Notes: a model not told the origin generated them from the letters alone. DNA of 63,998 nucleotides, filler included, from Stramenopiles sp. TOSAG23-2 (GCA_900128395.1; 3 parts of 3 records of this genome joined end to end with filler, not necessarily neighbours in it), one strand, 5' to 3'; counted from the first letter of the whole stretch, positions 21,742-54,400 are shown. A program made the numbers and translations.

Positions 21742-21979
21742 AGATACTACTGTTTGATATTATTTTTTCCCTTCCCAATTGATATTATATTCCTGAGTTA
21801 GATTATACAATACAAATAATAATAGCATATATGTTTTCCCTCACGCCAGAAGATATATCCAGATACTACTGTTTGATATTATTTTTTCCCTTCCCAATTG
21901 ATATTATATTCCTGAGTTAGATTATACAATACAAATAATAATAGCATATATGTTTTCCCTCACGCCAGAAGATATATCC
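21742..21979. repeat. Perfect tandem duplication, 2 x 119 bp
   Basis: agatactactgttt...gaagatatatcc occurs at 21742-21860 and again at 21861-21979. Confidence 0.9.
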
Positions 21980-22726: not shown

Positions 22727-22826
22727 NNNNNNNNNNNNNNNNNNNNNNNNNNNNNNNNNNNNNNNNNNNNTTAATTAATTAANNNNNNNNNNNNNNNNNN
22801 NNNNNNNNNNNNNNNNNNNNNNNNNN
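22727..22826. other. Artificial contig spacer (44 N + TTAATTAATTAA + 44 N)
   Basis: 100-nt N run with an all-frame stop linker; identical structure at 45548-45647. Confidence 0.97.
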
Positions 22827-29826: not shown

Positions 29827-32800
29827 TCAAAATTCATCATCTTCATCTCTTTTAATCCGTGCTGGAGTGATTTTTTTAAACGAATTCAATGCTTTGATTT
29901 TTGTTTTTGCCCTAGATGCCTTCTTGTTACGCGTACCACGCAACCAATGAGGAATGCAACATTTAAATAATTTGGCAACTTGAATTAATACTGCACTTCC
30001 TTTAGAACCATCTGACATTTCTTCATCCATATCCATTACCTTTAAAATAACGTATAAACGCACAGCAAATAGCATATAAATCGCATTGGCTGAAATCAAC
30101 AACACTGTAATCACCAATTGGAATGTGCCTACAACAGCATCTTGAAAAAATAATAAGCCGCACCACATCGTAAAAAATGCAACCATTAGTGCCCCAGCTT
30201 CAGCATCATGCAATGTATGGTGTTTATCAGTGATTGCCATATAAGGCCGTTGATCAACATGCATTATTAAATATATAACAGTCACAATTAGTGCAAATAA
30301 TGCTTGCAGTTCTGTGCCCATATTATTTAAAAATACTGATATGGCAACAACAGCCGCCTTGCGAGTTGCTATGACTGTCTCCCAATAATATGCTGATGAT
30401 GTATAACCAGAGTACAATATACCAAATCGAAATTTAACTCTTGATGACTTTAAATGGTGCTTATTGCAACGCAGCATACACGTTGAAAGCATTGGAAGGC
30501 CTAATATATATATAAATAATGATGGGAAAAAAAGTGCATATAGCCATCCCATGTGTTCTTTTTCATAACATGGTAAATCTAAATCCATTTGCAGATATAA
30601 TTTTTTTCCTACCGGTTTGCACGCAACTAATGAAAAGGTCGATTTGCAAAGTGTTGGATACAGTAAATATAACAAGATGACAGTAGTTGTTGTAAATTTA
30701 TCACATGCATTGAATTTTTCACGCTTACGCTTGTAAATGCATCTCAGACAACAATTTTTTATCGCGACTACGGTCCAAAAAAGGGCAGATAGGGCCATGC
30801 AAATGAAAGGGAGTGATAGCAACCCAGCTTGCTTCTGGAAAAACAAGCTATTACCTTGCTCTACAGCCTCTTCTGTACATGCTGGATTATACATATAGTC
30901 ACCAGCACTGCCCATGACTCCTTGCACTTCAAACATTGCTTCCACTGCATCTGGCCATTTCATTGGAAAACCTGACGCTAGTGAAATAAGCTGCAAATGG
31001 TCTGTGAAGCGTAGCGTATGAATGAGCGATGTGTTAGAGGGTATATTTTTTTTTAGTTTAGGGAAAATAGAATTTACTTACTCAAAATTATCTTCTGCAT
31101 GGGCTGTGCAAAATGATGATGTGGGCTTGTTGCGTTTTTGCCTTGTTCATCCAATGCTGTTTTGATAAACGTGTAAAGCATAAAGCAAACAAAAAGTACG
31201 CCTAGAGCAGTTACTATGTAGTTTAATAGTGGAGGAGGACACAATTTACAATTCGATACACCTTGAGCCCAATAACCAAAACGACACGCACGGCATAAAC
31301 GCGGACGGCATTTCATTACTTTACCATTCACTATTAACTGGCTGCTATTGTCTTTGCTACCTTTACATTCGTCTGCATAACCCAAATATTTATTGCATCC
31401 TTCATCATCATTTGCTAAGGACATATCAGGATTTGCATGGCCAGCCTCTTCATGAAAATATCGGCCTTCCAATTGAAGATTGATTCCACCTAAACATGCC
31501 ATTGGATTTAAGCATACATCAAAGAAATCTGGGTCCGAATCAACTGGACCAAGGCGAAAATATCCAAACTTTGGCTTTATATCAGTCCATATCGTGTGAC
31601 CATTGCAATCGCCACCCTTCGGACAAGTTTGACACTGCCATTCCCGTGGATTTTCAGATGCTTCATCTAGGTACTGTGTCGGCCCACAATCAGTTGCTAA
31701 AGACCAAAATGGATAAGGCTGATGCGTGAAGTGTAATATATGAAAGATTGTTGTGTTAGAGAGAGAATATTTACCTATATGGTTTAGGTGAATAGCAAGT
31801 TATTAAGGGAAATAGTAATTTACGTACATCGCTCGGCACCCCGCGTCCGGCACTTGTTTCCACGCCAACTTTATATGAACTTGTATCTAAATAAACTGGT
31901 GTGCTTGTATCACTAGTAGAGCAATACGTGCAATGCGTACCATACTCACATTCTACCATTACTTCGTTTATATCTTCCGGCTTTGAGAACGATCCTCCTT
32001 TTTTTATGTATTGAACAAAATATGTTGTTGTCACTTCGTTATTTGCATATACAGTAGTATCAGGGTCGAAAGATAAGCATAACGTTATTCTAGGTTCATT
32101 TAAAGGAACTGTAACAGTTAATTGTTCAGGAGGCAAGCGATCAATAATATTTAACATTGCACTTTTGCACATCGTGGAACCTTCAACATCAGTTGTCATG
32201 CCCTCAGGGCAGACGTCACAGCTTTCTCTTCCTTCACACATCGTAAATTTTCCTATTTCGCACAATTGGCACGCCCCTGATGCGTCCCCGTACACATTAT
32301 ATTTACCAGCCAAACATGTACTGCAAGTATGATCTGAGGTTGTACTTCCAAACGTCGATATATATTCCCCACTACGGCAAACTGTAAAATCATTACAATA
32401 CTTAGCATTCATTTGGTTCGAAAAGCGACCGTAATTACAGTCATGACAAGTTCTATCACTTTGACTACTAGGTTCAGCCCCTACATACCAACCGGGATCA
32501 CAAGAAGTGTGTTCAAAACAATTAATACCAAATATTTTTCGCGCGTTCCAATCCATCGAGTTGTGCTGATTTCGATCATAATTTGTACTACAATAGGTAT
32601 CCGTACTTACATGCGTTGGGCACGCTGTATCAGAACACCAGTCCTGTGTAACGCCACAGAAAAAAGTGTAAAATTTATTATTTTTTGTATAACATGTACC
32701 AACTGGGCCACTAAAATGATCTCGTACTTCAGGATGGAGACCATTATAAAGCAGCTCTAGGGTACCATCACCAAAGTAGTTGTTATACTTATTCTGCATA

Positions 32801-35800
32801 TTTATCATTGTAAAATGTCGTAATTTATTCCCATTTTCTGCCAAAATCATGTAATATACTTGGTGGCCTTGGCTGTTAGGCTTTGAAATATCATTGGCGG
32901 TATTATTTTCAATGGTGATGCCAATAAAGTTTGCTCGCGTATAATTAATCGGTTGATCGCTGTCATCATGGTCATGAAAATAATTGCTTGTATCAATAAC
33001 AATACCTCCACCTGTTGATTTTGCAATGTTTCTTGTGATAAACGAATCGTACACGAGAAAATTGGTTTTTCGGGCAAAGGTGGTATAAATGCCACCGCCA
33101 CTTACGTTTGCAACATTTTCAGACACATTGGTGTTGTTCATAATAAAAGTTGCATCATGATTACCCGTCAAACCTTGCATAGATTCTTTTCTACATCCAC
33201 TATTGTATTTGCATTCTTCGATAGTATAACTGTGACAAGAACTAGATTCCACTGTTCTAAGATAGTGAACACACTGAACATGCGATTGGTGGTATTTTAT
33301 GCCACCACCTGATGCTTCAGCGATATTATTTTGTATATTGCTATTACTAATGGAAAGTCGAGTCCCAGACGATGCATATATACCACCTCCACTACCATAG
33401 CTTAAACATGTTTCTTGCTTAGCGTCGGCGTTTAAATACTTTGCATTATTCAAATAAAATTCGAAACAAGGACTATGGTAACAGTTGTAGAAATAATCGC
33501 CTGATATTCTAACATACTCATTTAGAGAATATCCAGTACCACCGTTTTCAATAATTATATTTTCTACTTTCACATCATCAGAGTTAAAATTGTCTCGGTT
33601 TAAAAGTAAAATTAGATCTTCCGTTAGCCCAACGTTTTCCTTTCTTATAATTAATTTATCAAAGGTAGTATAATTAGACCCAGGATCACTTGCAACTATA
33701 TCTCCTATGCTATTATTATACCCGTTATACATTCCATGATGAATTGAGATGTTGAACCGAGCCCCGCTCCCTAATGTACTAGTCGTTATAGTTGGTACAT
33801 TATAATACCATGTCAGCGCATATTCTGAATTACAATTACCACATCCCGAGGATAACCAATAATCTGAGTAATGGGACGAAACAATACTATTATGATGATT
33901 ATACCCATAACTTCCATACATGTTATATTGCACATTATGACGCAATGGACCTCTGACTTCAATAGTAAACCTAGCCCCTTTGCCTGACATTGAGCTGTAA
34001 CTTGGTACATTCTTATAAATGCCTACTCCAATATGAAAATAACTTCCAAAATTGGTGTGGTCATGTTTTGTAAGATTCACTATTTCATTTCCGCTTTTTG
34101 ACACAATCTCACACTTCAGTTTTGTTGCAATGTTAGACATAATAAGCGAGTGTTGGATGCTTATGTCTGCATTGTATGCTCCATAAATGGCACCACGCCC
34201 GCCAATATTGTTTTGGATTATGGTATGGATCATGGTTAGCTTACTATTTGCATCTAAATATATCGCCGAGCCATAACAAGAATAACAAGAACGATTCTCA
34301 CGGTATTCCATTTCAGTATATTCATACCCTGTAAGTTGAGAATAGCTTTCTCCTTTACAGACATCAGAACTTTGACAGTGTTTTGACTGGTTAACGCCAC
34401 TTAAATTTAAATATTTTATTGTTAAATGTGCACCATTCAAAATTCGAAAGATTTGCGCTCCACCATTAGAAGCTACTATACTCCTTTTCGTTTCGGTAAG
34501 ATTTTTACCAGTGCATAATTTACATCCACAATATTTTTGTTCATCAAATGACGATGAATTGCTATCGCCACTAATGAAATACTCTGAGCCACTTGATCCA
34601 GACCAACTATTAGATGCACTGTAATAGTCATCGGATGGACCACTTGATCCAGAAGTACCGGAACTGTAATAGTCATCGGATGGACCGCTTGATCCACTAT
34701 TGTCAAAAGGTCCAGAACTATCGTCATAACTACCAGAACTACCGCTATCGTCATAACTACCAGAACTACCGCTATCGTCATAAGGCCCAGAACTACCACT
34801 ATCGTCAGAAGGCCCAGAATCAGCATCATTGCTACCACAACAGATACAACCAATAATATGTAAGTGGGCGTTCATCGTTTGAACAACTTGTGTATAATTA
34901 TTTGTATATATATCATCTTTTATCCCATGTATACTTTCAATGTCGGCATTATGGAAATCTGGTTCGGTTGGCAACCATCCTGTAAGTACATTTACTCTTA
35001 TTCTATATTCCCCGGCAACATAATGATTCAAAAACAAGTCTGTTCTACCATTCTCAAATGCGATGGTATATTCCTCGTCACTGTTCATAGGAAAATTTTC
35101 AGCACCAACATTCAGCGAGAAGAAAGTAGTATCTTCAAAATTATCGTTATTTTGTGGTCCGACCCAACCAGAAACTATATCCACACCATCTTTATCTGTC
35201 AACGTTATGTTAGAGGAACAAGAGGAACACTGAGCACCATCGTTCCATCCATCATTCAGAGAATCTTTCCCTTTTAAAGTGTAGTCTCCATCTGCTAAAC
35301 AAATTTCAGTCGGTCCATCATCTTGCGTTCCCGACTTGACCGTAACGTTGTTGTTGTTAAGAATTTCCCATGAGTTCTCATGAGTGCTAGGTCCATTATA
35401 AAATGATATATTTACTTTGCTTTCTCCCACATTGCAAGTAGTAGGACGGGGCTGTTGTTTTTGATAGCTCATACCGGGTGCACAAATATTTAAATCACAA
35501 TTGAAACTACGGCAATCATTATTGGTCGCACACGTAGAACCATCATTTAATAGTGCATTGCTAGATGATGCATTACCAAATGTGCAATTAATCCTTAAAT
35601 TTGCTGTCCTTTCATTTTCCCTTGCAGATACAGTAATAATATAATCACTTATTGTTTCATCAAATATCGTTCCTAATGCTGTTTTATTATTAGGAAGATG
35701 TAAGCCAATAGTATTATTTTGATCATCTTTAAATTCACAAGAATGAATTTGTGAATTTGGCTTCAGATCATGATTAGGCATCATGGCAAAAGCAGCAGGA

Positions 35801-36858
35801 TTGAAATCCGTTACAAGCTGTGGAAAAATTTTATCGCGACTAGTCTTCATTCGATAATATATCTTTCTCGTCGATGATAAAGATTGAGCATTTTCAAAAC
35901 GATCTGAGTAAATTTTAAATCGAAACTCTTCATTGCCTTCAATTTTGCATTCCTCTCCTCCATATTTATTAAGATCATTATGTAAAGTTATTTTATAATT
36001 AAAAATATCTACATAGCCATACCCTGTTGTTTTCGAATGTTGTACAGATAGTGAACAACTTTCTATCCCACCACTAACTGGAGACGCGTAAAGATCTTCA
36101 TTATTATCATTTATTCCCCAAGGCAAATATCCACTGTAATCACTCCAATCAACTGAAAATACACTAACCGTTATAAAATCACCATCTTTCAACATTCCTG
36201 AAGATGAAGGTTTTCCAGAAATATCGATCCAATTTGGCTTACCGTATATAATTCTATTATTAATTTTCATTGAGATAATACTCATGGAAGTACCAAAATC
36301 TTGTTTCTTTACGGAACTTTTATTTAAAACGCTATCATAGCTATACCGATCTTTTGACGCACAAATTTGAACTTGGAATGCGTTGTATTCTATTGAAATT
36401 TGATGACTATGTTGATTATAGTCATGGTTGTGATTTAGGTCGTTAGACATCCATGTTTTTATCTTTCCAGTTATACTGTTGTCAGGATAATTTCCATTTG
36501 CATCCTGTATATCACACCACCCATTATCATTACAGAATACGTTGAATAACATATGTACTTCATCAGTTGAAATTGCATAGCAATAATAGTACGAATAGTC
36601 TGTATTAAAGTTTATTAAAGATGTATTTAGGTAAATATTTGTTGCAGAATTTGGTATCTCATAGCCACTTGAGCCTGGGGGGTAATTCCATTCACTGTGA
36701 GGGAAAGTTACACGTGGACCAGATGGTTGAAAAAGTGGTACGATGTTTTCCAAACCTTTAAATGGTGCAACAGTTCGCGATTGCGACGTTGACAGTTGAA
36801 ATTTTACAGCAAAAGAAATTAGGAATAGTTTACTGATGAATACATACTTTTTATTCAT
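29827..36858 (-). CDS. Giant cell-surface protein (~2280 aa): signal peptide, S/G/D repeats, Pmp/pectin-lyase-like GGGI repeats, Cys-rich repeats, C-terminal multi-TM domain; exons 36858-31828, 31718-31082, 31001-29827
   Basis: Two GT-AG introns (31827-31719, GTACGT..CAG, 109 nt; 31081-31002, GTAAGT..CAG, 80 nt), each with a CTCTAACAC branch point, join three ORFs in frame (PSD|PYPFW; KIILN|HLQLIS). Confidence 0.85.
34590..34830 (-). repeat. Coding minisatellite encoding DDSGSSG(P/S)Y repeats
   Basis: Imperfect ~27-bp units such as ccagaactaccgctatcgtcataacta. Confidence 0.8.
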
Positions 36859-37063
36859 TGTTGTTTATTATTTCCATATAGATATATTCACAAAATAATT
36901 GCATACAATATGCAGCAAAGCTTGATGCTAAAGATTATTTCAATGTTGTGAGAAATGTTTGAGTTACTATCTTTTTTTATCAATATAATAATTATATTTT
37001 ATTGTTTCAGAATTATTACGTCATAATAAACTATGCTTTCTATTTAACTATATAGTATATATA

Positions 37064-37308
37064 AATATCGCGCTTCTGCCTAATTATGCCTAAAATTTCC
37101 TAACTTTTCCTAACGCAAATATATTCTAAGTTAGTGTTTTATTTTAGGATTACTGTGAAATCTAACGATATTTTTGATAGAATTAAGGAACAAGTCTAAT
37201 TACAATCAAAATAACAATTCTATTTGCCTAACGCAATACAATGAAGAAAATAATCTAGTTACCATTATAGGACTTACCGACGGCATAATTAGGCAGAAGC
37301 GCGATATT
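37064..37308. mobile_element. MITE family C with perfect 27-bp inverted ends, possibly including a TA target-site duplication (Tc1/mariner-like)
   Basis: aatatcgcgcttctgcctaattatgcc (37064-37090) is the exact reverse complement of 37282-37308. Confidence 0.8.
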
Positions 37309-37790
37309 AATATTCCGCCATGTGGTCTTATATAGGGACTGGTCGTAGTGTTCCAAGCGTTTTCTTGAGCTTTTACTTGAGCTTTTTCTTGAGCTATACT
37401 TGAGCTATATTTTCATACTCTACTTGATAGGATTTCATCAAGTGAAAAAAAATAATTTCACTTGCTCTTGATTATACTCTTGAGCGAATTCACTAGAAAA
37501 TTGAAGATTTCATAAAATAGTATAAAAATGATAGGTGATTTTTTAATGAAAAAAATAAAAAAAAGCAAACCGATTTTTTTTTTGATAAAATCTCTCCATT
37601 TTGTTTTTTTGGAAAGTATAAAAGGTACTAAAAATTGTAGTCTAATAAAAATATTGTATTCAAATATTCCGGATAGGAAATTTGGGTCATGTTAGGGGGT
37701 CATACAGTAGCTTATAAGTATTCTAATTCAATTACTTATTGAAATTTCTTAAAATTGATTGTAATTTATTATTTTTAATAGGAGTTATTT

Positions 37791-38309
37791 ATGATGTCTT
37801 CCCCTAGTTCTAAGAATACGAGCGAAATGCCTATGAATTATACTTCATTTGCGTATAAAAAAATTGCGAAAGCAAACTACAAAACTGAAGAAGGGATACC
37901 TTCTGCTGTAGAACGAGCAAATTTTATACAAGTTACTGCGCCATGCCCTGTTCAAATACTAGCGTATGATAAAAATGTAGAAAAGGATTACAAATTCAAA
38001 TGTCCTATGGATATTATGGTCGTTACTGACCAAGAAACAATTGTAATTCCTGTAAAACGAACTGATTATGTATTTTCAGTTAAGCATATTAAACAGTTGG
38101 ATAGTGAAGAAGGTTCATTATCAGCAATTCTTCACTATTTAATGAAGATTAAAAAAATGAGTAAATTATTTGAAGCAGATTTTATGAAAGTCAAGACTAA
38201 TTGTTGTTGGGTTTGGGATAACGATACTAAAACAGCATTAAGGTTATGGCGTAGTTATAAAAACGGGAATAGAATTTGGTTTGAAATATCTGTAGCAACA
38301 TATAATTAA
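37791..38309 (+). CDS. Hypothetical protein, 172 aa, with a weak degenerate PD-(D/E)xK-like pattern
   Basis: Clean ATG-TAA ORF; MDIMVVTDQETIVIPVKR...HIKQL. Confidence 0.6.
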   Translation: MMSSPSSKNTSEMPMNYTSFAYKKIAKANYKTEEGIPSAVERANFIQVTAPCPVQILAYDKNVEKDYKFKCPMDIMVVTDQETIVIPVKRTDYVFSVKHIKQLDSEEGSLSAILHYLMKIKKMSKLFEADFMKVKTNCCWVWDNDTKTALRLWRSYKNGNRIWFEISVATYN

Positions 38310-38360
38310 ACTTCCACGACACTTCCACGACACTTCCACGACACTTCCACGACACTTCCA
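38310..38360. repeat. 11-bp tandem repeat (ACTTCCACGAC) x4.6
   Basis: Starts immediately after the stop codon at 38309. Confidence 0.92.
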
Positions 38361-38736
38361 TTACAAAATTTTTTATCGCGCACTTGGTATATGGTCACAC
38401 TTCAACCCGATAGCTGTTGAATGTCCATGAACGAATGGATGGGGGGGGGGCACGAAATGCCCAAAGGGGCGCCCGAAATACTAAAGTTTTGAAACATGAA
38501 AATAATTTTCAACTTCAACAAAACTAACATAATTAAGAAAGTGCCCCCCCTGTTTCTTAAGGTAAGGTTTTTACAAGTAGTCGTCAATAAACCAAAGCAT
38601 TATGCTCTCAACGAAAGGGGGGGCATCAAAATGCCCCCTCAAACCACCCCAGGTGCCCCCCCTGCCCCCCCTTGCCCCCCTGGGTGAAATACATGACAAA
38701 TATATGGGCAAATCAACTGTCTATCCTAGAACAATG

Positions 38737-39110
38737 TAAGTGAATTTATTTTTTTTCACTTGGAATCCGCCCTATGGTGTGTAGGTGCTATCAAGTGAAT
38801 TTTTTTTATTTCACTTACACTCCATGTATAGGGAGTGCATAGCATGGGACGGTCAAGAGGCTAGGTCAAGTGAATTTATTTTTTTTCACTTGGAGGTCAA
38901 GTGAAATTATTTTTTTTCGCTTGGAATCGGGTCAATGGTATGTAGGTGCTATCAAGTGAATTTTTTTTTTTTCGCTTACACTCCAAGTATAAGCTGGAAA
39001 TAGCATGGGACGGTCAGGAGGTTAGGTCAAGTGAAATTATTTTTTTTCACTTGGAATCGGGTCTATGGTGTGTAGGTGCTATCAAGTGAAATTATTTTTT
39101 TTCGCTTACA
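38737..39110. repeat. Array of seven 26-bp palindromes CAAGTGAA-(A/T)10-TTC(A/G)CTT(G/A) in a ~130-bp higher-order repeat
   Basis: Copies near 38737, 38792, 38867, 38898, 38953, 39028 and 39083; an eighth, inverted, at 37439-37464. Confidence 0.9.
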
Positions 39111-39602
39111 CGCCCTAGTCTTGACTAGTCTTGAAGTATAATATTTTACCCTATTTCATTTAGGGTTTTCCCATCCAAATATCTTCACACATGATAGTCT
39201 CCAACATATGATTAATTGCTATCACTTTATGATATCTCCCGCTATATAAATTTGTAGTATGACACTACTAGCTGGCTAGCGTCGTTGCCCATTACAGACC
39301 ACACAATCATCAATAATCATCAATCTTCTTAAAATAATTAATAATAAATAAATAATAATTATCTCCCAATCAATCCTTTCGTCCCGTATAATCACCAACA
39401 CCACCAATTTCTGGAAAGAAAACGAGAACATCACAAACAAAAGCAGAAAACGCTGCTAAACGCCTTTGCTAAAACTGGGAACACTACCGCCATCACCATC
39501 GTAATCAACCAAGTAACTGGTCATTTCGTTCGCGACAACTTTAAATCAGATTCCCGTACCGTCTAATAAAATTGACGAATAACCTTTTAGTGAAATTAAA
39601 TC

Positions 39603-41573
39603 ATGCAAGAAGTAAAAACGACGGAAATAAATGAATCCCCTCTTCAACCCAATGACATAGGCAACTTGGAAATAGAAATGGAAAACGACGAGGTTCCAGA
39701 GCTTACACGCTGTCGTAAATGCCGTATATTGTGCGGTCGTGAAAGTATCCTTGTGTCCATGGTGGTGCTTGCTTTAGGTGGGGGCAATATATTTATTTTT
39801 TCTGGTTATGCTGGTGGTTTCAACCGTGAAGGGTTGTGGGTATTTTTCGCTCTAGGAATCCTTTCCTGCTTACTCGTGGTATCGTTTATTGTCCGCACTT
39901 GTAAGGCTGTTCAACCAAAAAATAAGAAGAAAACGGAAGAGGAAAATGACGGAAAAGATGAAAATCAAGATGAAAATAAAGAAGAAAATCAAGAAGAAGA
40001 GAAAAAACCATCAAAAATTGCTGCTATGTTTGATACTATGAAAACGCGTTACAACCACCTATTTGATGTCAATGGAAAATATTACTTGAGCAAAATGTAT
40101 GCCGCCGAACTGTTTGAGCACGCCCAACAAGTGTATTCCTTGACCACCATTTACCTGTGCTTGATGCCCGTAGAAACATCCACTATTGTGTGTGCCGTTT
40201 TGACCGTTGAATTGCTCATCAACATTTGGGCTACTTTTCACATCGGTTCTCAAGAAGTACGGGATAGGTTGATATTTCTAGATATTTTGACGGATGTATT
40301 TTGTATGGCGTTCCCGCTTGCGTATTCACGCTTTGCCCTTAATATGCCTATACACCTTGAAAGTATGCTTCTCATTGTAGTGTATCCAACACTGTCGTTG
40401 TATTCAAAATTGAACGACATTTGGGAAGATTATTTCAAGATGGATTTGGAGCGGATTGAACAGACAAAAAAAAAGCAGAGCAAGGGGAAGGCAAGAAACT
40501 CGCGGCGTTCAAGTGTCCTCAATTTGTCCCACAATCGCGACACACTTGACGCGCAATTAGAACATTTCCCCAAATGGCTGCGTTACGCCTTTACGGTGCT
40601 TAACATTGGTTTCGTGTTGTTTTTTGTTAGTTTGGTAAGCGTCCAGTTAGCCACCCAACCTTCCACTGATACATGTAGTGGTATTTTCACGAAAGAAGTG
40701 TGGGGAGGGTGTAAAGTTGAAGTCCCGTTTTGTCAAGAATTGTTTGTTGCGAAGTGCGATTGTGCCGTGGTGGAAATGACCAATTACACCCAAAAAGCAC
40801 TGCCCGAATCGTTTGGAGGTTTAAAGTCGTTGGTCAAGTTGGGCGTTTATACGGGTCAGTTGGAAGAATTGCCGCAGCCGCTAGGAGACAACCATGAGAG
40901 GTTGCTTGTGCTCCAAGTAATAGGAAACCAACTAAAATCGTTGCCCGACAGCGTGGGAAAGTTACAGAATTTGCTTCACCTTTGGGTCTTCAACAACCAA
41001 CTGACATCGTTGCCCGACAGCGTGGGAAAGTTACAGAATTTGCTCAACCTCCAGGTCTTCAACAACCAACTAAAATCCTTGCCGGATAGCGTGGGAAACT
41101 TACAGAATTTGCTCAACCTTTATGTCTTCAACAACCGACTAGAATCCTTGCCCGACAGCGTGGGAAACTTACAGAATTTGCTCTTCCTTTATGCGTGGAA
41201 CAACACATTAACCGCTCTGCCCAAAACAGTAGGTGATATAAAATCATTAATTGTGGTAGATGTTCGTCACAATGGTTTGACCGATTTACCGTCGTCGGTG
41301 AGCCAATGGAGCAAGGTAGAATATTTGTATCTAGCAGGCAATCCCTTATGCGCGAACTTGGACATTCCTAGCAATTTAAAAGACGCAACAGGGTTGTGCG
41401 AGCAACAATGCTCTGTAGATTGTCCTGCTCATTGGTTGGGTCGTTACGGGTGCGATGACAATGATTACACCTACCGTTACACAAAAAAATATAATCCCAA
41501 TGTAAAACCAAAACCGAATTCAGGGTGTAACACTGCCGCGTGTGAATACGACAAAGGGGACTGTCCTCGTTGA
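39603..41573 (+). CDS. Multi-TM receptor-like protein with C-terminal LRRs and a Cys-rich LNR/Notch-like repeat
   Basis: Several N-terminal TM segments; 23-aa LRRs (NQLKSLPDSVGKLQNLLxLxVFN); LAGNPLC cap; CSVDCP..WLG..GCDD..GCNTAACEYDKGDC. Confidence 0.9.
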   Translation: MQEVKTTEINESPLQPNDIGNLEIEMENDEVPELTRCRKCRILCGRESILVSMVVLALGGGNIFIFSGYAGGFNREGLWVFFALGILSCLLVVSFIVRTCKAVQPKNKKKTEEENDGKDENQDENKEENQEEEKKPSKIAAMFDTMKTRYNHLFDVNGKYYLSKMYAAELFEHAQQVYSLTTIYLCLMPVETSTIVCAVLTVELLINIWATFHIGSQEVRDRLIFLDILTDVFCMAFPLAYSRFALNMPIHLESMLLIVVYPTLSLYSKLNDIWEDYFKMDLERIEQTKKKQSKGKARNSRRSSVLNLSHNRDTLDAQLEHFPKWLRYAFTVLNIGFVLFFVSLVSVQLATQPSTDTCSGIFTKEVWGGCKVEVPFCQELFVAKCDCAVVEMTNYTQKALPESFGGLKSLVKLGVYTGQLEELPQPLGDNHERLLVLQVIGNQLKSLPDSVGKLQNLLHLWVFNNQLTSLPDSVGKLQNLLNLQVFNNQLKSLPDSVGNLQNLLNLYVFNNRLESLPDSVGNLQNLLFLYAWNNTLTALPKTVGDIKSLIVVDVRHNGLTDLPSSVSQWSKVEYLYLAGNPLCANLDIPSNLKDATGLCEQQCSVDCPAHWLGRYGCDDNDYTYRYTKKYNPNVKPKPNSGCNTAACEYDKGDCPR

Positions 41574-41804
41574 AGGCGGTACGATGTAGCGGCACTTGAC
41601 AGTGGTTTGTCGCAACACGAAAAAAGACGATAAAAATCCATCAAAATAGGTAGCGAAATCAATGGAAAAATAAAGCCGTGGTGGTCAAGAAACACCCACC
41701 AAAACCACACAACCAACAAAAGTATTTGAAAACAAGAGAACCAAACCGAAAATGTCAAGAAAGCCAAAATATGAGAATAATTACAATCAAGAAGCCAATT
41801 GTAA

Positions 41805-42152
41805 TTATTTTGATGAAAGGTAGTCGGTATCCACTTGGGGGTCTTTCATTTCCGCTATTCTAAAGTCGTTCCCAAAGGCATTCAACAATTCGCACACGGA
41901 CAACGCTGTCGTATCAGGAGTCCATTCGCCCGCCTTCATCTGCGTCACCCAGCAATCAAGGCACAACGGGCAATTCAAATACAAAAACTCTGCCTTTGCC
42001 TCCATGTGTTTGTTGTCATGACACAACCGACAATCTAGTTCAAGGTTTCTAGCACTCCTGTAGCGGTTTGGGCGTAACCATTCGTTGTTCAATTTACTGC
42101 TCATCTCTAGTCTAGTAAGAAGTCGTGGCTTTATATCCGTTTCATATATCAT
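41805..42152 (-). CDS. Small putative Zn-ribbon protein
   Basis: 115 aa with CRLC...CPLCLDC; divergent from the 42348 ORF. Confidence 0.55.
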   Translation of the reverse strand: MIYETDIKPRLLTRLEMSSKLNNEWLRPNRYRSARNLELDCRLCHDNKHMEAKAEFLYLNCPLCLDCWVTQMKAGEWTPDTTALSVCELLNAFGNDFRIAEMKDPQVDTDYLSSK

Positions 42153-42347
42153 TTAATGGACATCGCTTAATGATTTTAACGGGACACGGCTCTTTACCTA
42201 ACGCCACCACACCATCCGTCAAGGGAGTGCCGTCGCCATTCATCGTCAAGGTAGCGTACCATTGATGTAGGCAACGCAAGTTTTCCTAACCGCCCCACAC
42301 CCAGTCGCCACCAAGCAATTATTTCTCTGTAGTATATTTAAGACAAG

Positions 42348-45300
42348 ATGACATCTTTACAACAACCGTATTTTTTAGAATGTAACCGAAGTAATTCAAC
42401 GATATTAAGCGAAAACGATGATTACAACGCCGTCTGGAGCAGCGATATTGCCCCATTCCAATTGCTTCCGGGAGACCAAGTTAGCGTCAGTTCTGTGGCG
42501 ATTGAAGCCTCAAGCATAGGGACGCCGGATACAATTGAATTTACCGCTGAGCCGGTCAAGGTCAATAATGTTCAAAAAGAGTATGTGGATAACAAAGTGG
42601 TCTTGGAGATAGGATTTTATTTGTTAAATGCGAATGGCTCGCATACTTGCGTGCTGCCCTTGAGATTTCCATCGTATTACAAAGATATAACTGCGAATTA
42701 TCGTCTAGCAGTAAATGATGCTACCACACAATTTATTGGCGCTCCAAGTATGCCTGGATTTAGTGAAAAAGGAACCATTGGGTTTACCAATCCTGGTCAA
42801 AAATATGTGTTTTACGAAGGCGTGGATACTAGCGGCAATGTCCTTCCACAAACAGGTCAATATACCTATCTTACCAAAATTATTTTGTCACAACCGGCAG
42901 ACCCAAACCCGAATGGATTTTTATTGGTAGATTATGCCACCGATTACGATGGAAATACAGGAAATTTTAGAGCCATGGACGGGATGGCGTGTCAAATGGA
43001 GAATGCGTTGAATCAAGTATATGATTTAGGAATTGTCAAGAAGATAGATGCTTCAGGAACTCGCGTAATGCTAGAATTGGACGAGCCTGCTCTAGCTCCT
43101 TTTATGTTCCAACCTTCCGCACCAACTGTAAATGGTAGCCCTGTAACTTTTTATGTTAATTTTCCAAACGACAATCGTGGATTGGGATTGATGAACGCAG
43201 ACATGAACGATTATTCAACGCCGGCACCGACATTCAAAGTAGAGCGTGGAAATGTGTTGTATGATATAACAAGCTATCTAGGTAATTCAACAGAAGGAAG
43301 GAATCCAGTGTATTACAAAAGTTTTAATTTGAGAGAAGGCTTTAGCAACACGCCTTACATTTTATCAAGGCAAGACTACCAAGGCACTCAAGTCAGCGGC
43401 AATGCGATGAAAATGTCGCCTTTGCTTCAGCCAATGACAGCCTTTGTAACTTTATCGGCAACTGAAATTTTTGAAGATTGTAACAGGCTGGCGGAACGAA
43501 TTGAAGCTCAATTGCGTGAAGTTAGCACCATATTTGGACTCAATGAAAAAAGCAAAGAAATTATTGACGAAGATACCACTTACAAAAAAAGCAATCAAAT
43601 CATTCCGTATCAGCAGTATTTTGGACATTTTCAGCCTGGTGTTGTTCCTTCCACCAACCCGAATTACATCAATTTTTCTAGATTATGGGATAGCATCATT
43701 CAAATCAATACCAGTCCAACGGTCAAGGTCATCCCAGCGAATTTGTATTTTGCGCCTGATTTTTCATTATATTCTAATTCTTATTTTTACGAACTTGAGG
43801 ATGATAGAATCAATTACCTACATACGGCAATGGATAGTGGTGGAAGGAAGCAGGATGCTTACCCTAGTGAATTTATCAACAACCAGATTTATGGGAATAT
43901 TGCTTGGAAGGACATGTATAAAATGATGGCGGGTGACCGTTGGTTGCGTCTTGAGGTTGATAAGTTGTCAAGAAACATTTGTCGTCCCGTTATCTTGAAC
44001 ACACAAATAAAGATTAAAGCCATTCCGTTTGGAACACCAGTTACGTATGACCTTTCAAGTTCGTATATTCCATACGATTTTCCCATATTCACCAACATCA
44101 AGTATAACGATGCGAATTTAAAAATGATTCGTGAAGGAATGAAGTTGAAAGAGATTTATAAACCAATTCAATTCAAAGGGTATAATACTTGGGCACAGCA
44201 GAAAACCGATGCGAATGGTTGGATTTACCCTGAAATGGATTTGGGTATTTGTAACGATTACTCAAGCAATCCCATTTTGTCCCCTGGAACTTATGTTGCT
44301 GATAGGTATGTAGGCATTACACCACCTTGGAAAACAAGTTACCCTCCTGACGCATCGTTCAATAATCCAAATAACTTGAGCAACCCAACAAGTAGCGATA
44401 TCAATACCATATGCCCGCCGCAAAGTGATGGTGGAATTGGGGATGATGAACCAAGCGCGAGAAGCATAGGTCGTTTGAAAATTTACAGCAGGTATAGTCA
44501 AGATTATTTCACGCGGGCAAGCACCTCCATCAAAAACGCCATTGGTGACAATGAAATTGGTAACTTGTTGTATCAAGCGAATGGAAATGTATTTGATGCG
44601 ACTTTATCTAGGACAAACAATGTTGCGGCATATCCATATCGCAATACATTAACGAATGAAACGCTTTGTTTTTTTATGTCAGCTGACAATTATGATATAG
44701 GCAATCAAGAAGCTACATTCATTAATAAATATTACCAATTGGGTGTGATTAGTTGGGGGACGCCCTTTTCCATGGCTGATTTTTCCACCTTGAGCAATCC
44801 GGCGCTGATGCCAATGAACAACAACAAATACAAAGTCAATACCTTCACAAACTCATCGGGCGGACAAAATTATCCAAATGAAGCTTACTTCGTTAATAAT
44901 GTAAATTTTATATGGGCAGGGGCTAACAATCCTCAAATTTCGTATGATTCAGCAACGAGCCGATTTCAGCTAGCAAATTTACATACCAATGTGTTTTATA
45001 CGAATGATGACGCACCTAGCGAGTTTAAAGATTCTGTGGAGGCTGGCAATCAATGCGCAAGAGTAAATATTTCGTTTGCGGATAATACGCATACAAGTCA
45101 TAATAATAATGTGGATGAAAATACTAATTATACCCAGAAAAATACAGGCATACTTGACCGTCAAAGTGGTATTTTTATTCATAAAATTTATTTGCCTAAG
45201 TCAAGTGATTGGTCACCACCGGAAGATATAAATCCATTGAGTTATTGGAGCAACGATACTATGGATGCGACAGAGAACAACCGCCAAGAAATCATAAAGG

Positions 45301-45492
45301 ATTTGATTGAAGCCGATGAAGACAATTACGAATCATGTTTGCTGAGCAAGATGGGGTTTAAGTATGAGCAGCTGATGCCGAGGTATGGAAACCAAGATGC
45401 GAGATACAATGAATCTACATACAACAATCCCAATCCAAATATTATAGGTCAAGGTGTGAAACCATTTATGACGAACTGTTTGATTGACAGTG
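42348..45492 (+). CDS. Large hypothetical protein, possible viral structural protein (PLV minor capsid-like), 3'-truncated
   Basis: >1040 codons, N/Y/P/D/T-rich with no signal peptide or TM; N-terminal FLECNR...NAVW..D...QLLPGDQVSVSSVAIE...TIEF; the last 55 nt before the gap are a chimeric inversion. Confidence 0.6.
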
Positions 45493-45547
45493 CGGCGTTG
45501 AATAATCGTTCATGTCTGCGTTCATCAATCCCAATCCACGATTGTCG

Positions 45548-45647
45548 NNNNNNNNNNNNNNNNNNNNNNNNNNNNNNNNNNNNNNNNNNNNTTAATTAAT
45601 TAANNNNNNNNNNNNNNNNNNNNNNNNNNNNNNNNNNNNNNNNNNNN
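45548..45647. other. Artificial contig spacer
   Basis: 44 N + TTAATTAATTAA + 44 N. Confidence 0.97.
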
Positions 45648-46079: not shown

Positions 46080-46352
46080 ATATATATAACAATCACTTTT
46101 GAACTACAAAACCTTGTGGATCATTTGATGAATTATTTTTATCTGGTAACAACAATACTTTTAAATTATTTTTCAATAAATTATTCAGATATTTTCTACT
46201 GCATAATAATTCAACATATATATAACAATCACTTTTGAACTACAAAACCTTGTGGATCATTTGATGAATTCTTTTTATCTGGTAACAACAATACTTTTAA
46301 ATTATTTTTCAATAAATTATTCAGATATTTTCTACTGCATAATAATTCAACA
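46080..46352. repeat. Tandem duplication (136-bp period) of the NPRL2 3' end
   Basis: aacaatcacttttgaactac... at 46088 and 46224, one mismatch seen. Confidence 0.88.
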
Positions 46353-48449: not shown

Positions 48450-51400
48450 GGTAAATTAAAAAGTACTATTAAATCTAAGTTGGAAGAATTTATTGTTACG
48501 GATAATTCGAATATCATTTTTGAGAAGACTAAGGAAAAAGACTTTTGCTATCTATTTGCAGTTAAAAGTATAGATGGAAATGATCTTGAAATTAGAAAAG
48601 ATAATCCTCAAATAACAGAAGCGTTAAAACAATTTGGTGGCACTATTGCTATCAATAAAATATCAACTCGTGGAATTATAATTAAGTTACCTGCTATTAA
48701 ATCTCTTCGTAGTAAACCTATATTTGTAAGAGTAGAAAAAGTCAATGTAAATATTACTCTGAATGATAGGGATAATATGGATGAAAGTGAAGCGGAGAAA
48801 GAGGCGCATATAATAGCTAAACGTAATCATTTAATTGCTTCAAACCATATGAAAATGATGAATGAATTAAAAGATGCTACGCTAGATGGAAATGCAAAAA
48901 GTAGTGGTTACTTTCAAAAATTACTTGTCGATGTCTTGCAAAATATAGTGGTAGAAGTGACGGATATAAATATATGTGTTGCTGCCACATTGCCGAATGG
49001 AAAACGTTTTAAATTTGGTTTTGCTGTAAATAGACGTGGTAATAATAATGATAAAAATACTCGTGGCAATGTTATACAAAACGGGATTACAATTCGTAAC
49101 AAGGATTTGTCGAAAGATAATACCATACGTGAATTGATTGTGAAAAATGTTTGTATATATTGTACAAAAGCTGATAAGAAAGATAGTAGAAGCGATAATA
49201 ATAATGATAATGATAACATTAAACCAAAAGCAAGAATATTACAAGATTTTGATGTTGCATTAACAGTTGTAAATAGAGGCAAGGAATTGACTTTAATCGT
49301 AAACATTGATACAGATTTGCGATTTATCTTGCTATCGAAGCAATATTTAAATTTGACATATGTTGCAACTTCATTATCGAATAGGTTGGATTATTTACAA
49401 ACATTAGCAAATGGTAAAGTAGCAATTATTGAAGATGGAAATTCCAATACAATGGAGAGCAATAATGATCAATCGAAGAACAAAAGCAAAAAAGAAAGAG
49501 AATATAAGAGATACATTGAATATTATAAAAGTATTCTTCTAAGCAAAAAGCAATTAGAAGATAAAACGATGCCATTGGATACAATGATTCCAAAAATAAG
49601 TGAATATGATACTCTGATTGAGAAAGATGCACTATGGGCAGTTAAAAATATATATGGACGGCACAAATGGGCCATTGCTGATATACAAAGTGCACATGCA
49701 TTTGCTCTACAAAGCGCCATTGATGAAGTTCGTAGAAAAAAGGAAGAAAAGAAGGCAAAATCACTTGGAAATTCCATAGCTAGCGGATTCAGTTTCATGA
49801 AGAATTCTTTCTTCGGTAGCCGAAATAAGAAGACTAATGATAAAAAGTCTCAACCTGAAACTAAATCTACGAAAGAATTTGATCAATTACAGAAAGACTT
49901 AGATGACTTGCAAGAGCAAGAAACTGCATTAGCAAATAAAGATAAACATGAAAGTATTTTAGAGAACAAAGATAATTTATTTGTTTTTTTCAAAATTGAA
50001 AAAAATTTAGAATTCATACTTGCAAGGAGTAAAAAGACAAAAGAGAAAAAGTTAAAGAAATTTCTAAAATTTTCTTTAATTGATGGTGTGGAATTAAATG
50101 CTAACAAAAATAACGAATATGTACGGGTAGCCCTTCGGGTTGGATTAATAGAACTTCAAGATATCCGCGAGACAAGAATAAATATACTAGAAAACGGTCA
50201 AGGCAAAAGTAACCAAAAGGATGATACGTGGAATGTATTTAATGGGAAAGAATCCCTGACAAACCCATACTCAAGCACTTCAGCAAGAAAGGCATCTGAA
50301 TTTACTTTTAGATTTCAAAAGCTAAACAAAACCTTGCAAAAAAGTATATATGCCCGCATTTTAGTGAAATCAAAATTAGTAGCAGATTTAGATTTAATTA
50401 AAGATGTAAAAAATACATTTGCAGCACCTGTTGGAACCCAAGGATTTCATGGTGCTCAACGCTTAGCACATGAGGTCAAAACTTTGGGCAACAAAGAAGC
50501 AAAATCAACAACACCGGAGGAAGTTCTTGATAATCTTCTCATAGATGTGGAGCTGTTATCACCCACAATTGTTGTCCCCAAAAATCTAAGTAAGTGGAGA
50601 AATGATGGCAAAGACAATTTGAATACAATTGTTTTTACATTAGGAAAATTAAAAATTAAATCACAACAAAATACACCAGAAATTACATTACATTTGATCT
50701 CTGGCTCAAATGATGCTAATGTATTAGATATCATTGGTAATGAAAGTCTATCGAAGTTAAAGGTGATCGACAATTTTGAAGGTGACATTGAAATTGCATC
50801 GACGAATGATGATGGGACAAAGGTCAATTTGAAAACGAAAAGTGACGAGATAAAGGTTTTGCTTGATAATGACAAACTTATGGTAACTTTATCCATCTTG
50901 GATGGTTTGTTGCATAATCAAGGAACGCTTATTGAAAGTCAGGACAATAAGAATATTGTGGAAGACAAAGGTGACGTTGTAAAAGCAAGAATAAAATCAA
51001 AGCCAGCGTTGCTGGGATCATCAATACGAAAGATAGTTGTAGGAGAAACTGGGTATACATTATCAGTGAATGATATATTTGTGCCTGGAACATATACAAA
51101 TGTAATTTTTCCTACCAATGTTGATGGATACGTTTTTGATTTAGATAATGAAAAAGAAGTTTTCTTAGGAAATGTGAAAATTAAAGTAGATGAAAATAAC
51201 ACAACAGTGACAAATAATGTAGTAAATCTTGTCGCTATCAATGCAAATGACGATCGTATAGCATGCAGTTTACATCTGTCAAGTAATAAAGAAGACAAGG
51301 ATGACCTCGAAACTGTTAAGTACAATCAAAGCGTGACTGTTGACCTTGAAGTACCAAATTTGATATTAGAAATAAATGAGTATGAAGAAAAATCTGCCTT

Positions 51401-54400
51401 TGCTATTGAAGTTTCTAGCGAAGGCGAAAACACAAATAAAATTTCATATAGCGTCGCACCTAAAGAAGATGCAGAATTAAATTTGAATTTTAATAACATA
51501 GACATTGCAATTCGTGATCTTACATCAAAAGAATTAGCTTTATCAGCTGGTTTGAATGATGTGGGACTTAGACTGTTGCAAGGTCCGGCTAGTAAATTTA
51601 TAAGGCGGGATAATAGCAAACTCTGCATCCTTCCAACACCAATACCAACAATTTCTGAGTGTACCTTTAAAGCTAAAGTTGTACTCCATCTTGAAGTACC
51701 TTCGAAAGAGGGTAAACTGTTAGATACCATGAAATCTATGTACATCGAAAATCATTACAATGATAATGATGACGACCAGGAAGAAATAAAGGAAGGGGAA
51801 GATGATGATGATGTTCCTCCTAAGGAATTATTTAAAATGAAAGAAATAGCCACAAAATATGAAAATGAAATGTTAAATGTTATAATTGGTATTGATGGTA
51901 AATTTGACACCGCTTTGAAGCAAGATGGCGACAAGCATAATAACTTTTTCCAGGATGTAAATGCAACTATATCCCTGGACGAGAAAGGTTTAAGTGTAAA
52001 ATATTCGAGTATATTGCCAGAAATTTTTGTTGCTCCTTATTTGTGTTCAAAACTAGATATCAAAAAAGCATTTTGTGGTTCTTCTAGCAATCTTTTTGGT
52101 CCAGCTGAAAATTTGGATACCAAAACAAAATTTAGTCTTAGTGAAACCAATAAAGAGTCTGAAGGCTTTGTATGTTACATTTGTGAAGAAGATAAAGCTG
52201 TTGTCCTAACTTGCCAACAGGAATTGTTGAGACGTATCTTGCCTCTTCAACAATTGGGAAGTAAAAATGAACGGTTGGTTGAACGCTCAAAAAAATCGTC
52301 TTCGCAGAAACAGGAGAAAGAAAATTTAGAACGTATAGGCGATGTAGAAATAGATGTTCTATCTAAGGATCCGTTCGTTTTATCATTGGAACTGGTGGAA
52401 TTTAGATTGAAAGACGAAGATGCTATCAACTGTACAAATTTAGGAATTTTTTATGCAGCCAATGTTAATTATCATATGCATTCGTCAAATGTTTTAGAAA
52501 ACAAGTTGCCAATCCAGAACAAAGGTACTGTTATTCATGCTGATGTATTGAAAATTGAAACAATTTTAGAAAATTCTTCATTTAATGTTGCCACTGATCT
52601 TGCATTTAAGAAATCTATTGAAATTAGATATCAAGAGGATGAAAATGCCGTTAAAACCTTTACAAAAACTGATATGACAGTCTTATCTCTTCCGAAACTT
52701 TACGTTACTCATAAGTATCTGGTAAATGAGCAAGAAGCGGAAGAACGTGTTTTGTTTCCATTTTCAATTATGATGGAGCTAGAAGATTCTGATACCAAGC
52801 AGCAAGTAGAATCGGGAAAATATAATGCGTTAGGGAAGCGAATTGTGAAAATGTATATTGATCCAATATATTTATCAATTAATGTCAATAGTATTCAAGA
52901 ATATCTAGAAATGAACGACAAACTGAAAAAAATACAGCTCCTCACTTCAAGTAGCAAAAAAGAAGCGACAACGGCACCAGAAAGCGGGGATGATGTTAAA
53001 CCTACTACGCCAACATTTATTAATATAGTTCAGTTAAAGGGTTTGTCCGTAGTACTTCAACAAGATGCGAGAGTTATTACATCGTTTAACTGTGATAATG
53101 CATTTACGACAGGCACGTTGAATATGGCGAAATCTACTAAAAATATGTTTGTTGAAACACATGTAACTGGAATTGAATTGAATGCTATCGTGTACAATGA
53201 TGTAAATGGAAGACCAATTTTGCCCAGGCAATCTCCAATTATTGAAAATTGGTCGTTTTCCCTTTTTGTAGAAAAATTCAATGACGTGAAGCGTATGTCG
53301 GGTTTTTCTAAAGGACTAAGAGCATCTTGTGTCAGTCCACAGATTTTAAATTTAAATGTTGATCCATCTGTTATTCACATGTTGAAAGAGTTGCAGTTTG
53401 TCCTAAAAAAAGCAATAGAGGATCATGTAAATGACAATGATGAAATTGCGATACATCAGATCGGATCGTTGCTGGAAGGCAATGATCCCATTGGAGAAGT
53501 GGAAGAGCCTTTGCTTGAGACTGAAGAAAAACAATTTGAAAAATTATCACATCGTTTTGCATCAACCGACAAGCCTCAGATATATGGGGAAGAACATACT
53601 GGCGACGAAGACTTAACAAAGAGGGAACAACTCGTTTTAAGTTTAAAATCAGGAACATTTGATAAGCTCGCTGATTTTGCTGGATCATTATATGAAGCTA
53701 GTAAAGAAGATATGGACTCGGTTGCAAATGTAAAAGAGAATATCCAGAATAAAATGGCCGAGCAAGGGGATAGAATCTTACCTTCGTACTCTGCTTTAGC
53801 AGATGGTACAGTTCGAGTGTATACAAGAAATTTAATAAACGATCCTATACAGGTAAAGATAGAATTTACGTCAGAGAAGGGAAAACCCGTTGGAGGTGAT
53901 GAAAAAATGTTACAACCGCGTAAAAGTGTATTTATCCATGATTATACCCCAGATAAAGTTGAAGTGGCAGCATGGATAAATGACCAGCCATTGGACATTA
54001 ACAATGCAGATCAGCGGATAGATAATGATCCAAAAATTGGACACCAGTATCATGTTTCGATTTCTAAGTATACAAACGATAAGATGGGCATCGAAATCAT
54101 AATATCAGTTTACAGCGTTTGCCTTGTTATTAATAATATGGATTATTACATTGATGTCATAGAAAAAGATAAAAACTTGCAAGGTGTGGATTCTGATGAT
54201 TTTACGCATGTTCCAGATTTACCCGACAATGGTTATGAGGTGGAATTTGATGACGAAAATATTCCTCAAAATTTAAAATTCATGGATCATTCTAAATATG
54301 GAACTGGTGAAAACAAAAAAACGGGTGAAGTAATGGAGGTACAAGTGCGCTTATCTGGAATTAATGCTAATGAAGATAAAGATGATACAACAACCACGGG

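Follow-up and report, generated by a model that had tools for sequence, protein, structure and literature searches.

Does the right end of a contig from Stramenopiles sp. TOSAG23-2 (GCA_900128395.1) carry an integrated Polinton-like virus, and has this virus brought a surface receptor gene with it? The locus is part of a 63,998-nt stretch of AT-rich eukaryotic DNA, which as a whole is called the window here. A first reading made without database searches (the sequence-only reading) had described a flank rich in repeats and palindromes, an orphan open reading frame (ORF), a transmembrane leucine-rich repeat (TM-LRR) receptor, a zinc-ribbon ORF and a soluble protein of more than 1000 aa, and had taken the ensemble for an integrated Polinton-like virus (PLV) that delivers a diversifying receptor. 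All these parts were found, and in this order. We consider the locus a probable endogenous viral fragment beside a host receptor gene. Most likely the large ORF is the leftmost remnant of a viral element that had integrated, or else a viral insertion standing alone, and whatever followed it has been lost at the contig end.

The large ORF at the contig end

The stretch is a concatenation of at least three contigs, and neighbourhood across the artificial joins carries no meaning. One join, at 45548–45647, consists of N44, TTAATTAATTAA and a second N44, and an identical copy is situated at 22727–22826. Because the join at 45548–45647 is artificial, the DNA to its right, including the NPR2 gene, belongs to a separate contig; the locus is the right end of a 22.7-kb contig (22827–45547).

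The large ORF starts at 42348 on the plus strand. The last 55 nt of the contig (45493–45547) are the exact reverse complement of 43169–43223 (inverted pair I1, 100% complementary), a fold-back artefact, and therefore the true ORF stops at 45492. A matching joint of opposite strands (43168/45547) was found in a contig re-assembled from the DNA run X1; this and all other evidence from Logan contigs refers to 32 listed of 505 pieces. The ORF is complete at its 5′ end, truncated at its 3′ end by the assembly artefact and comprises 1048 codons without a stop. A soluble protein of the size seen in the sequence-only reading is thus present, and no hydrophobic segment was found in it, but its end had to be corrected to 45492 and its 3′ part is cut off. 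Homology to the relatives P0001 (1285 aa) and P0002 stops at 45497; both proteins cover the whole window part and run about 230 residues further.

Compared with six proteins, the large protein gave E-values from 3.2e-256 to 1.4e-73. Among 1.84 billion representatives there were 113 relatives at E ≤ 1e-3 and 45 at E ≤ 1e-30, mostly 1100–2500 aa long. The large ORF is a member of this family, which shares the N-terminal ~110 residues and a core matching residues ~320–1050. The N-terminal and WAGANNPQ motifs, which the sequence-only reading had matched to marine viral structural proteins, turned out to be real conserved blocks of a family with viral members. By sequence the large protein had no match in Pfam, PHROG or PDB, Pfam domains were absent from 16 of 17 scanned relatives, and a feature-based Atlas search with the large protein returned nothing useful (best 0.86).

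In the C-termini of the short forms P0001, P0002, P0004 and P0005 a conserved acidic tail with two EEK(Q/R)(P/G)E-like copies was noticed. These relatives are 33–46% identical to the window protein, and the window copy ends before the tail.

A further relative, in locus L027, is 69% identical to the large protein over 551 residues and runs off its contig. The proportions of nonsynonymous and synonymous differences between the two genes (pN 0.20, pS 0.76) indicate long purifying selection on the large gene. Upstream, the window and L027 have only 22 nt directly before the start codon in common. This element, TTTCTCTNTAGTATATTTAAGA (42322–42343, plus strand), is a candidate promoter; it has one match in the window (2 of 100 shuffles give one) and one in L027 (2836–2857), and as an exact pattern it was not found in IMG/VR.

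Relatives of the large gene in viral contigs

Distant relatives of the large gene lie in a viral context. By a pattern scan 26 IMG/VR contigs of 5,958–29,628 nt were obtained (the viral loci), whose 292 ORFs were clustered. The large-gene relatives in these 26 loci are 25–33% identical over long matches (tblastn), which in 17 of the loci reach at least residue 1041. The genes form a module with the order ~300–590 aa, 270 aa, 136 aa on the opposite strand, and then a same-strand run of 250 aa, 370, 535, ~100, 465, 510 and the large gene. The 465- and 510-aa genes immediately precede the large gene in 23 of the 26 loci. This conserved ten-gene module (loci L001–L026) is almost without Pfam matches.

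The 465-aa protein gave a weak model (predicted local distance difference test, pLDDT, of 48 overall, better over residues 1–230). Compared with 48,161 chains, its top 13 matches were all double-jelly-roll capsid or capsid-derived proteins (Z 11.3–6.7), including those of Paramecium bursaria chlorella virus 1 (PBCV-1), Sputnik, African swine fever virus (p72), mavirus and PRD1. Among the language-model neighbours of this gene in the Atlas, Capsid_NCLDV and double-jelly-roll-like domains occur in 10–16% of the members. The gene thus models as a double-jelly-roll capsid gene; its 102 relatives, Tara Oceans records included, are all situated on contigs of at most 33,530 nt. The 535-aa cluster matched the N-terminal jelly roll of the capsid protein in hhalign (91.7%, E 7.7e-7). 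By this match the 535-aa protein is likely a penton or minor capsid protein, and it is a better penton candidate than the large protein.

The 250-aa protein contains Walker A (GKS) and Walker B (ILDD) motifs, and the packaging-ATPase call in the viral loci is based on these together with weak P-loop rows only. Three viral loci extend to a 900–950-aa D5_N/DUF5906 primase-helicase, and an N6/N4 DNA methylase is found in some. Profile searches of PDB with four module alignments returned nothing better than E 0.86. The virophage hallmarks cysteine protease, rve integrase and protein-primed DNA polymerase B (pPolB) were found neither in the window nor in the related loci examined. Judged by gene content, the large-gene family is viral and Polinton-like in make-up, and by homology the large ORF represents a truncated copy of the biggest gene in a group of small double-jelly-roll dsDNA viruses.

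Many genes of the viral loci have a TTTCT...TA.TATAA-like stretch directly before the ATG, possibly a promoter common to these viruses. Patterns defined post hoc were present before 92 of 251 viral genes versus 2.5% of random 35-mers, and before 41 of 251 versus 0.5%, an enrichment of 15–30× over random 35-mers. Of the 20 window ORFs compared, the large one is alone in fitting all three of these patterns. A match of its upstream region to the viral promoter was nevertheless dropped: the unbiased 5-mer model is dominated by AT, the region scores below the viral 10th percentile, and 9.2% of the window 35-mers score as high. Only the 22-nt conservation between window and L027 was kept as a candidate finding related to a promoter.

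Fold and possible role of the large protein

The window part of the large protein was modelled, the C-terminal ~200 residues lying outside the model. The model is beta-rich (pLDDT 66.7, predicted template modelling score 0.75). With Foldseek neither PDB nor BFVD yielded a match at E ≤ 0.001, and in VIA-align only a small barrel at residues 135–272 was matched (Z up to 8.1, ~130 residues). This barrel resembles accessory barrels of glycosidases and phage tail-tip proteins. VIA-align rows pairing residues 59–63 with 1006–1065 to Emiliania huxleyi virus 201 (EhV-201), PBCV-1 and other chains had Z-values of 4.1–5.9, which is the noise level. With hhalign no match of the large protein to three capsid-module families was obtained. 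A penton or jelly-roll fold, as the sequence-only reading had in mind for this protein, was thus supported by none of the three methods.

Nine positions are invariant among 29 sequences. They comprise the start Met, Pro, Gly and Asn and no residues of catalytic type, a pattern typical of a structural protein and not of an enzyme. Because the gene lies beside the capsid gene and the protein has conserved ends and a very variable length, we infer that it is a virion component, perhaps at a vertex or the surface. The N-terminal 110 residues and the C-terminal core would be seated in the capsid, and the variable inserts would face outward.

Is a virus integrated at this locus?

A compositionally distinct block, non-coding DNA included, extends from 38310 to 45492, as seen in intergenic GC and in GC at third codon positions (GC3). 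The intergenic GC is 0.39 at 38310–39602 and 0.43 at 41574–42347; elsewhere it is 0.24–0.32 in 15 of 16 stretches and 0.40 in one. GC3 amounts to 0.47 in the TM-LRR gene, 0.53 in the zinc ORF and 0.38 in the large ORF, compared with 0.15–0.31 in the 16 other window ORFs. In a leave-one-out codon score the three have z-values of −4.6, −4.8 and −2.7, respectively, each below the lowest host ORF. The codon usage of the large ORF is foreign, and the sequence-only reading was correct in setting all three genes apart from the host.

In the window the 292 ORFs of the viral loci gave only large-gene matches, plus one match of the capsid cluster (cluster-0) inside a host gene, whose E of 0.007 is chance level. 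Besides this match no double-jelly-roll capsid gene was found in the window; the contig ends inside the large gene. The 535-aa (penton), 250-aa (ATPase) and primase-helicase clusters had no match in the window, and integrase or polymerase domains were absent from the 20 window ORFs that the Pfam scans covered. No terminal repeat pair was found either: apart from the fold-back no long inverted pair touches the region, and the right end lies beyond the contig. Thus the capsid, packaging ATPase, polymerase and integrase genes that would complete the proposed virus were all sought in the window, and none was found. Since the defining viral genes other than the large gene are missing at a contig end, an integrated Polinton-like virus is plausible and unproven; the large ORF is in a viral, Polinton-like family, and no PLV core gene accompanies it in the window.

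Several observations weigh against our reading of an endogenous viral fragment beside a host gene. First, in the search with the 292 ORFs the large gene was the sole gene of these viruses in the window. Second, over long matches the identity of the window clade to the IMG/VR genes amounts to only 25–33%. A midpoint-rooted tree places the window protein together with P0001/P0003 and P0004/P0005 and separates it from the IMG/VR sequences; P0002 and L027, both outside the tree, were put in this clade by identity. Third, scanning IMG/VR with the window protein, P0004 and P0001, each singly, revealed no member of the window clade in a viral context, and none was found on a contig sharing the capsid gene (102 capsid relatives). 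Fourth, the upstream neighbours of the large gene in the window and in L027 are not capsid-module genes. Fifth, the proposed virion role comes without a significant fold match, the best VIA-align result (Z 8.1) concerning one barrel only. Further points of this kind concern the assembly and the receptor gene and are given with them below.

Upstream of the large gene L027 has a methyltransferase-like ORF, followed further out by a membrane LRR gene in the opposite orientation. The methyltransferase-like ORF (277 aa, 1990–2823) is situated directly upstream of the large-gene relative and has no Pfam match at E 0.01; its FKGSGN and NPPY motifs are like those of N6-adenine DNA methyltransferases. 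A conserved large gene, with an upstream element of its own and flanks that differ between the two loci, agrees with a mobile element having inserted independently in each. The left end of such an element would lie just upstream of the large gene.

We considered two alternatives to an integrated viral fragment. First, the large gene could be a cellular gene of viral ancestry, which the protist keeps for its own use and which is no longer part of a mobile element. A frame intact over 1048 codons and strong purifying selection suit such a domesticated gene, as do the 22-nt element kept with L027 while the flanks differ, the occurrence of P0002 on a contig of 62,748 nt and the fact that the closest clade is in no viral contig found. 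Contigs of the oligo-dT RNA library X15 match the large gene at 90–98% identity and would also agree with it, but they are not proof of transcription. The codon usage, however, is unadapted to the host, and the neighbours differ between window and L027, as expected for independent insertions. In addition, contig ends interrupt the gene in the window, in L027 and probably in P0003, suggesting a multi-copy or variant sequence. Overall, domestication appears quite improbable to us, and we prefer the viral fragment.

Second, nothing might be integrated at all, if DNA of a free or infecting virus had been joined to host DNA by amplification chimerism or mis-assembly. The 55-nt perfect fold-back, which recurs as the strand-switch joint in the X1 contig, shows that chimeras occur in this data set, and the window itself consists of concatenated contigs. 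Moreover, 37090–37264, 38339–38443 and 40955–41138 are unbridged among the listed Logan contigs. Each of these stretches lies at a repeat: a unit resembling a miniature inverted-repeat transposable element (MITE) with a depth of 427, an 11-mer tandem with homopolymers, and the LRR repeats, respectively. These findings count against an integrated fragment. They have to be set against the read evidence from X1 and X2, two small DNA runs of one study that may or may not be independent of each other and of the assembly, and in which 94% and 63%, respectively, of the sampled words of the stretch were present. One X1 contig (41138–43168) contains, with 0 differences, the family-specific C-terminal domain of the LRR protein, the zinc ORF and the start of the large ORF, so that the large ORF is linked to the 3′ end of the LRR gene in one re-assembly. 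An X2 contig (41969–42870) joins the zinc ORF to the large ORF and covers most of the junction. A chimeric join between the LRR gene and the viral-like ORFs, which by the sequence-only reading would have refuted it, was not seen at this point. In both runs the depth declines smoothly toward the contig end (12.4, 11.1 and 8.85 in X1), with no step at 38310 or 42348.

The marine metagenome X3 bears on the same question. In its listed pieces the host gene is at least 99% identical with a depth of ~2.8, and the large gene is 96–98% identical with a depth of 3.4–9.9. This difference would agree with a virus separate from the host; variants of the unit of zinc ORF and large gene are therefore more abundant in circulation than this host genotype. 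Taken together, an artefactual join seems very unlikely to us, and the DNA is probably integrated.

The LRR receptor gene and the zinc ORF

The TM-LRR gene (39603–41573, plus strand) is situated 775 bp from the large ORF. It codes for a multi-pass membrane protein of 656 aa with ~5 hydrophobic segments, LRRs (Pfam LRR_14, E 2.1e-21, LRR_4 and others) and a Cys-rich C-terminal domain. Its membrane domain (residues 130–400) has 44 relatives with 40–85% identity (E 6.9e-151 to 3.7e-18), one of which is named Stramenopile-MAST_4 by EukProt; the relatives occur on contigs of up to 110,431 nt, another being ~81 kb long. In an alignment of 27 members (A7) the conservation reaches the C-terminus and the number of LRRs varies. 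In the window, tandem LRR units of 69 nt (23 aa) lie at 40897–41241 on the plus strand (direct repeat family D1), and one X2 contig is without exactly one 69-nt unit (40936>41006), being either a real length variant or a collapsed assembly. By these relatives the gene belongs to a cellular multigene family of stramenopiles of the MAST-4 type (marine stramenopile group 4), and the family points to a MAST-4-like host.

The zinc ORF (41805–42152, minus strand) codes for 115 aa with a Cys-rich CxxC...CxxCxxC pattern. It has no Pfam family and only two weak PHROG rows (E 0.066 and 0.076). An X3 contig, ~94% identical, covers 41953–42367, and therefore a diverged variant, too, has the zinc ORF linked to the large gene.

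These genes could be cargo, the whole GC-shifted block from ~38.3 kb being one integrated PLV whose left arm holds captured, diversifying TM-LRR and zinc-ribbon genes. The compositional shift that begins at 38310 indeed takes in all three genes (LRR gene, zinc ORF and large ORF) as well as non-coding DNA, and the diverged X3 contig retains the junction of zinc ORF and large gene. L027, too, has a TM-LRR gene upstream of the large gene, two genes away, and the GC3 of this TM-LRR gene exceeds that of the large gene (0.45 vs. 0.30). The TM-LRR proteins of window and L027, however, are not homologous (BLASTP E 0.24, hhalign probability 0.5%), and the immediate upstream genes differ, with the zinc ORF here and the methyltransferase-like ORF in L027. 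The LRR family is cellular, with members in EukProt proteomes and on contigs as long as 81 and 110 kb, and in the 26 viral loci tblastn found no relative of the LRR gene, the zinc ORF or the orphan ORF. The conserved upstream element stands before the large gene only; it was not found before the TM-LRR gene. As stated above, capsid, ATPase, replication and integrase genes and a terminal repeat pair were not found in the window, and the high GC3 could stem from biased gene conversion in a multigene family bearing repeats. A single virus reaching from 38.3 kb to the contig end is thus unlikely in our view, and the claim of the sequence-only reading that a virus delivers a diversifying receptor was not borne out.

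We accordingly regard the TM-LRR gene as a host neighbour rather than cargo, with two observations on the other side. The LRR gene and the zinc ORF deviate from the host codon usage more than the large ORF does, which fits cargo better than a plain host neighbour, and a TM-LRR gene is found within two genes of the large gene in both the window and L027. A shared compartment for variable gene families and insertions, plus GC-biased gene conversion in families bearing repeats, could explain both the codon usage of the LRR gene and this recurrence.

Repeats and other features of the window

The flank proved as rich in repeats and palindromes as had been described. The MITE-like dispersed repeat (37059–37313) is 255 nt long and has inverted ends of 32 nt (inverted pair I2, 97% complementary); it sits between the last clearly host-like gene and the region of the LRR gene and the large ORF. 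Both I2 arms were re-found and no further copies exist in the window. In X1 its depth of 427 contrasts with ~20 in the adjoining DNA, loose ends are seen on both sides in X1 and X2, and the two X3 depth bins covering it have depths of 141–201. The unit is a dispersed repeat present in many copies in this organism or in relatives of it.

A hairpin palindrome of 26 nt, CAAGTGAAA-N8-TTTCACTTG, is present in eight copies at 37439–39108, partly inside 161-nt tandem units, against 0.08 matches expected from shuffles. It was not found in 27 fetched loci (core pattern) or in IMG/VR contigs (exact pattern). The orphan ORF (37791–38309, plus strand, 172 aa) has no Pfam or PHROG family and is host-like in GC3 (0.24) and codon score (z −0.4). 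Directly after its stop codon follows the 11-mer tandem (38310–38364) with 4–5 copies of ACTTCCACGAC. Runs of G and C homopolymers follow the tandem (38310–38700 in all), and the GC shift starts exactly with the tandem, at 38310.

Cellular proteins identified in the window by Pfam are a GH2 beta-galactosidase, a Patched-like protein, NUDIX, BTB-BACK, a prolyl oligopeptidase, an ABC transporter and NPR2. On the contig of the large ORF are genes for GH2 glycosidases and a Cys-rich gene with an Ephrin_rec_like domain. The latter, an ORF of 1695 aa (31771–36858), has Ser/Gly/Asp repeats and host-like codon usage; another ORF with host-like codon usage, of 2966 aa (48777–57677), has no Pfam family. 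Near-perfect tandem duplications were seen at 46080–46351 (136 nt, overlapping the 3′ end of NPR2) and 21742–21979 (119 nt). No tRNA was found in the window and no Rfam family in 36800–45547.

Relation to known viruses and significance

The viral loci (~18–30 kb) resemble PLVs in having a double-jelly-roll capsid gene, a second jelly-roll gene, a small ATPase with Walker motifs, a D5-type primase-helicase and sometimes an N6/N4 DNA methylase, a gene set as described in passages of PMC4642659 and bioRxiv 10.1101/2022.07.28.501842. Unlike PLVs, the window is without the PLV core genes, integrase and terminal inverted repeats were not found in it, and its clade is in no viral contig seen. According to passages of PMC10120064, PLVs integrate widely in protists. 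The large gene is not mentioned in passages of PMC4642659, PMC7805220, PMC10120064 and the PgVV preprint, and in the literature we found nothing that joins Polinton-like viruses to MAST-4. From these passages the gene family and the virus group appear to be uncharacterised.

A second comparison is with the endogenous mavirus-like elements (EMALEs) of Cafeteria burkhardae, which are integrated, differ from the host in GC and have short promoter motifs directly upstream of their genes, as stated in parts of PMC8547959. The likeness consists in small double-jelly-roll viruses in a heterotrophic marine stramenopile and in the TTTCT...TA.TATAA-like stretch before the ATG in the related viral contigs. 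In contrast to EMALEs, the virophage hallmark genes were not found, and the resemblance in promoters derives from post hoc patterns.

The large protein is like vertex and spike proteins (adenovirus fibre/penton, PRD1 P5/P2/P31) in its gene being beside the capsid gene, its conserved termini, its length of 1100–2500 aa in the family and its beta-rich model; unlike them, it has no significant fold or profile match to a penton, fibre or capsid protein. Its small barrel is also like parts of phage tail tips and tailspikes (Z 4.7–6.3).

The integration of small DNA viruses in protist genomes is well known, and the kind of event is not new. The locus does illustrate how the boundary of an element can be mimicked by a concatenated, amplification-derived assembly, in which the apparent gene end is a fold-back plus an artificial linker.

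As the large genes of window and L027 each have a TM-LRR gene of raised GC3, a different one in each case, no more than two genes away, one may imagine a Polinton-like clade in MAST-type marine stramenopiles in which the large gene lies close to the left end and membrane LRR genes of the host are acquired there. We regard this as a rather doubtful proposal. If it were true, such elements would move surface receptors between cells and diversify them, and the large gene would for the first time tie an abundant group of marine double-jelly-roll viruses, so far hostless, to a host; if the LRR gene is cargo, the locus exemplifies a virus moving receptor genes between cells. Apart from this, the large gene is the largest in a conserved ten-gene module of marine viral contigs without a known host. 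A copy with an intact frame and physical linkage to heterotrophic marine stramenopile genes offers a testable clue to the host of this virus group or of a sister group.

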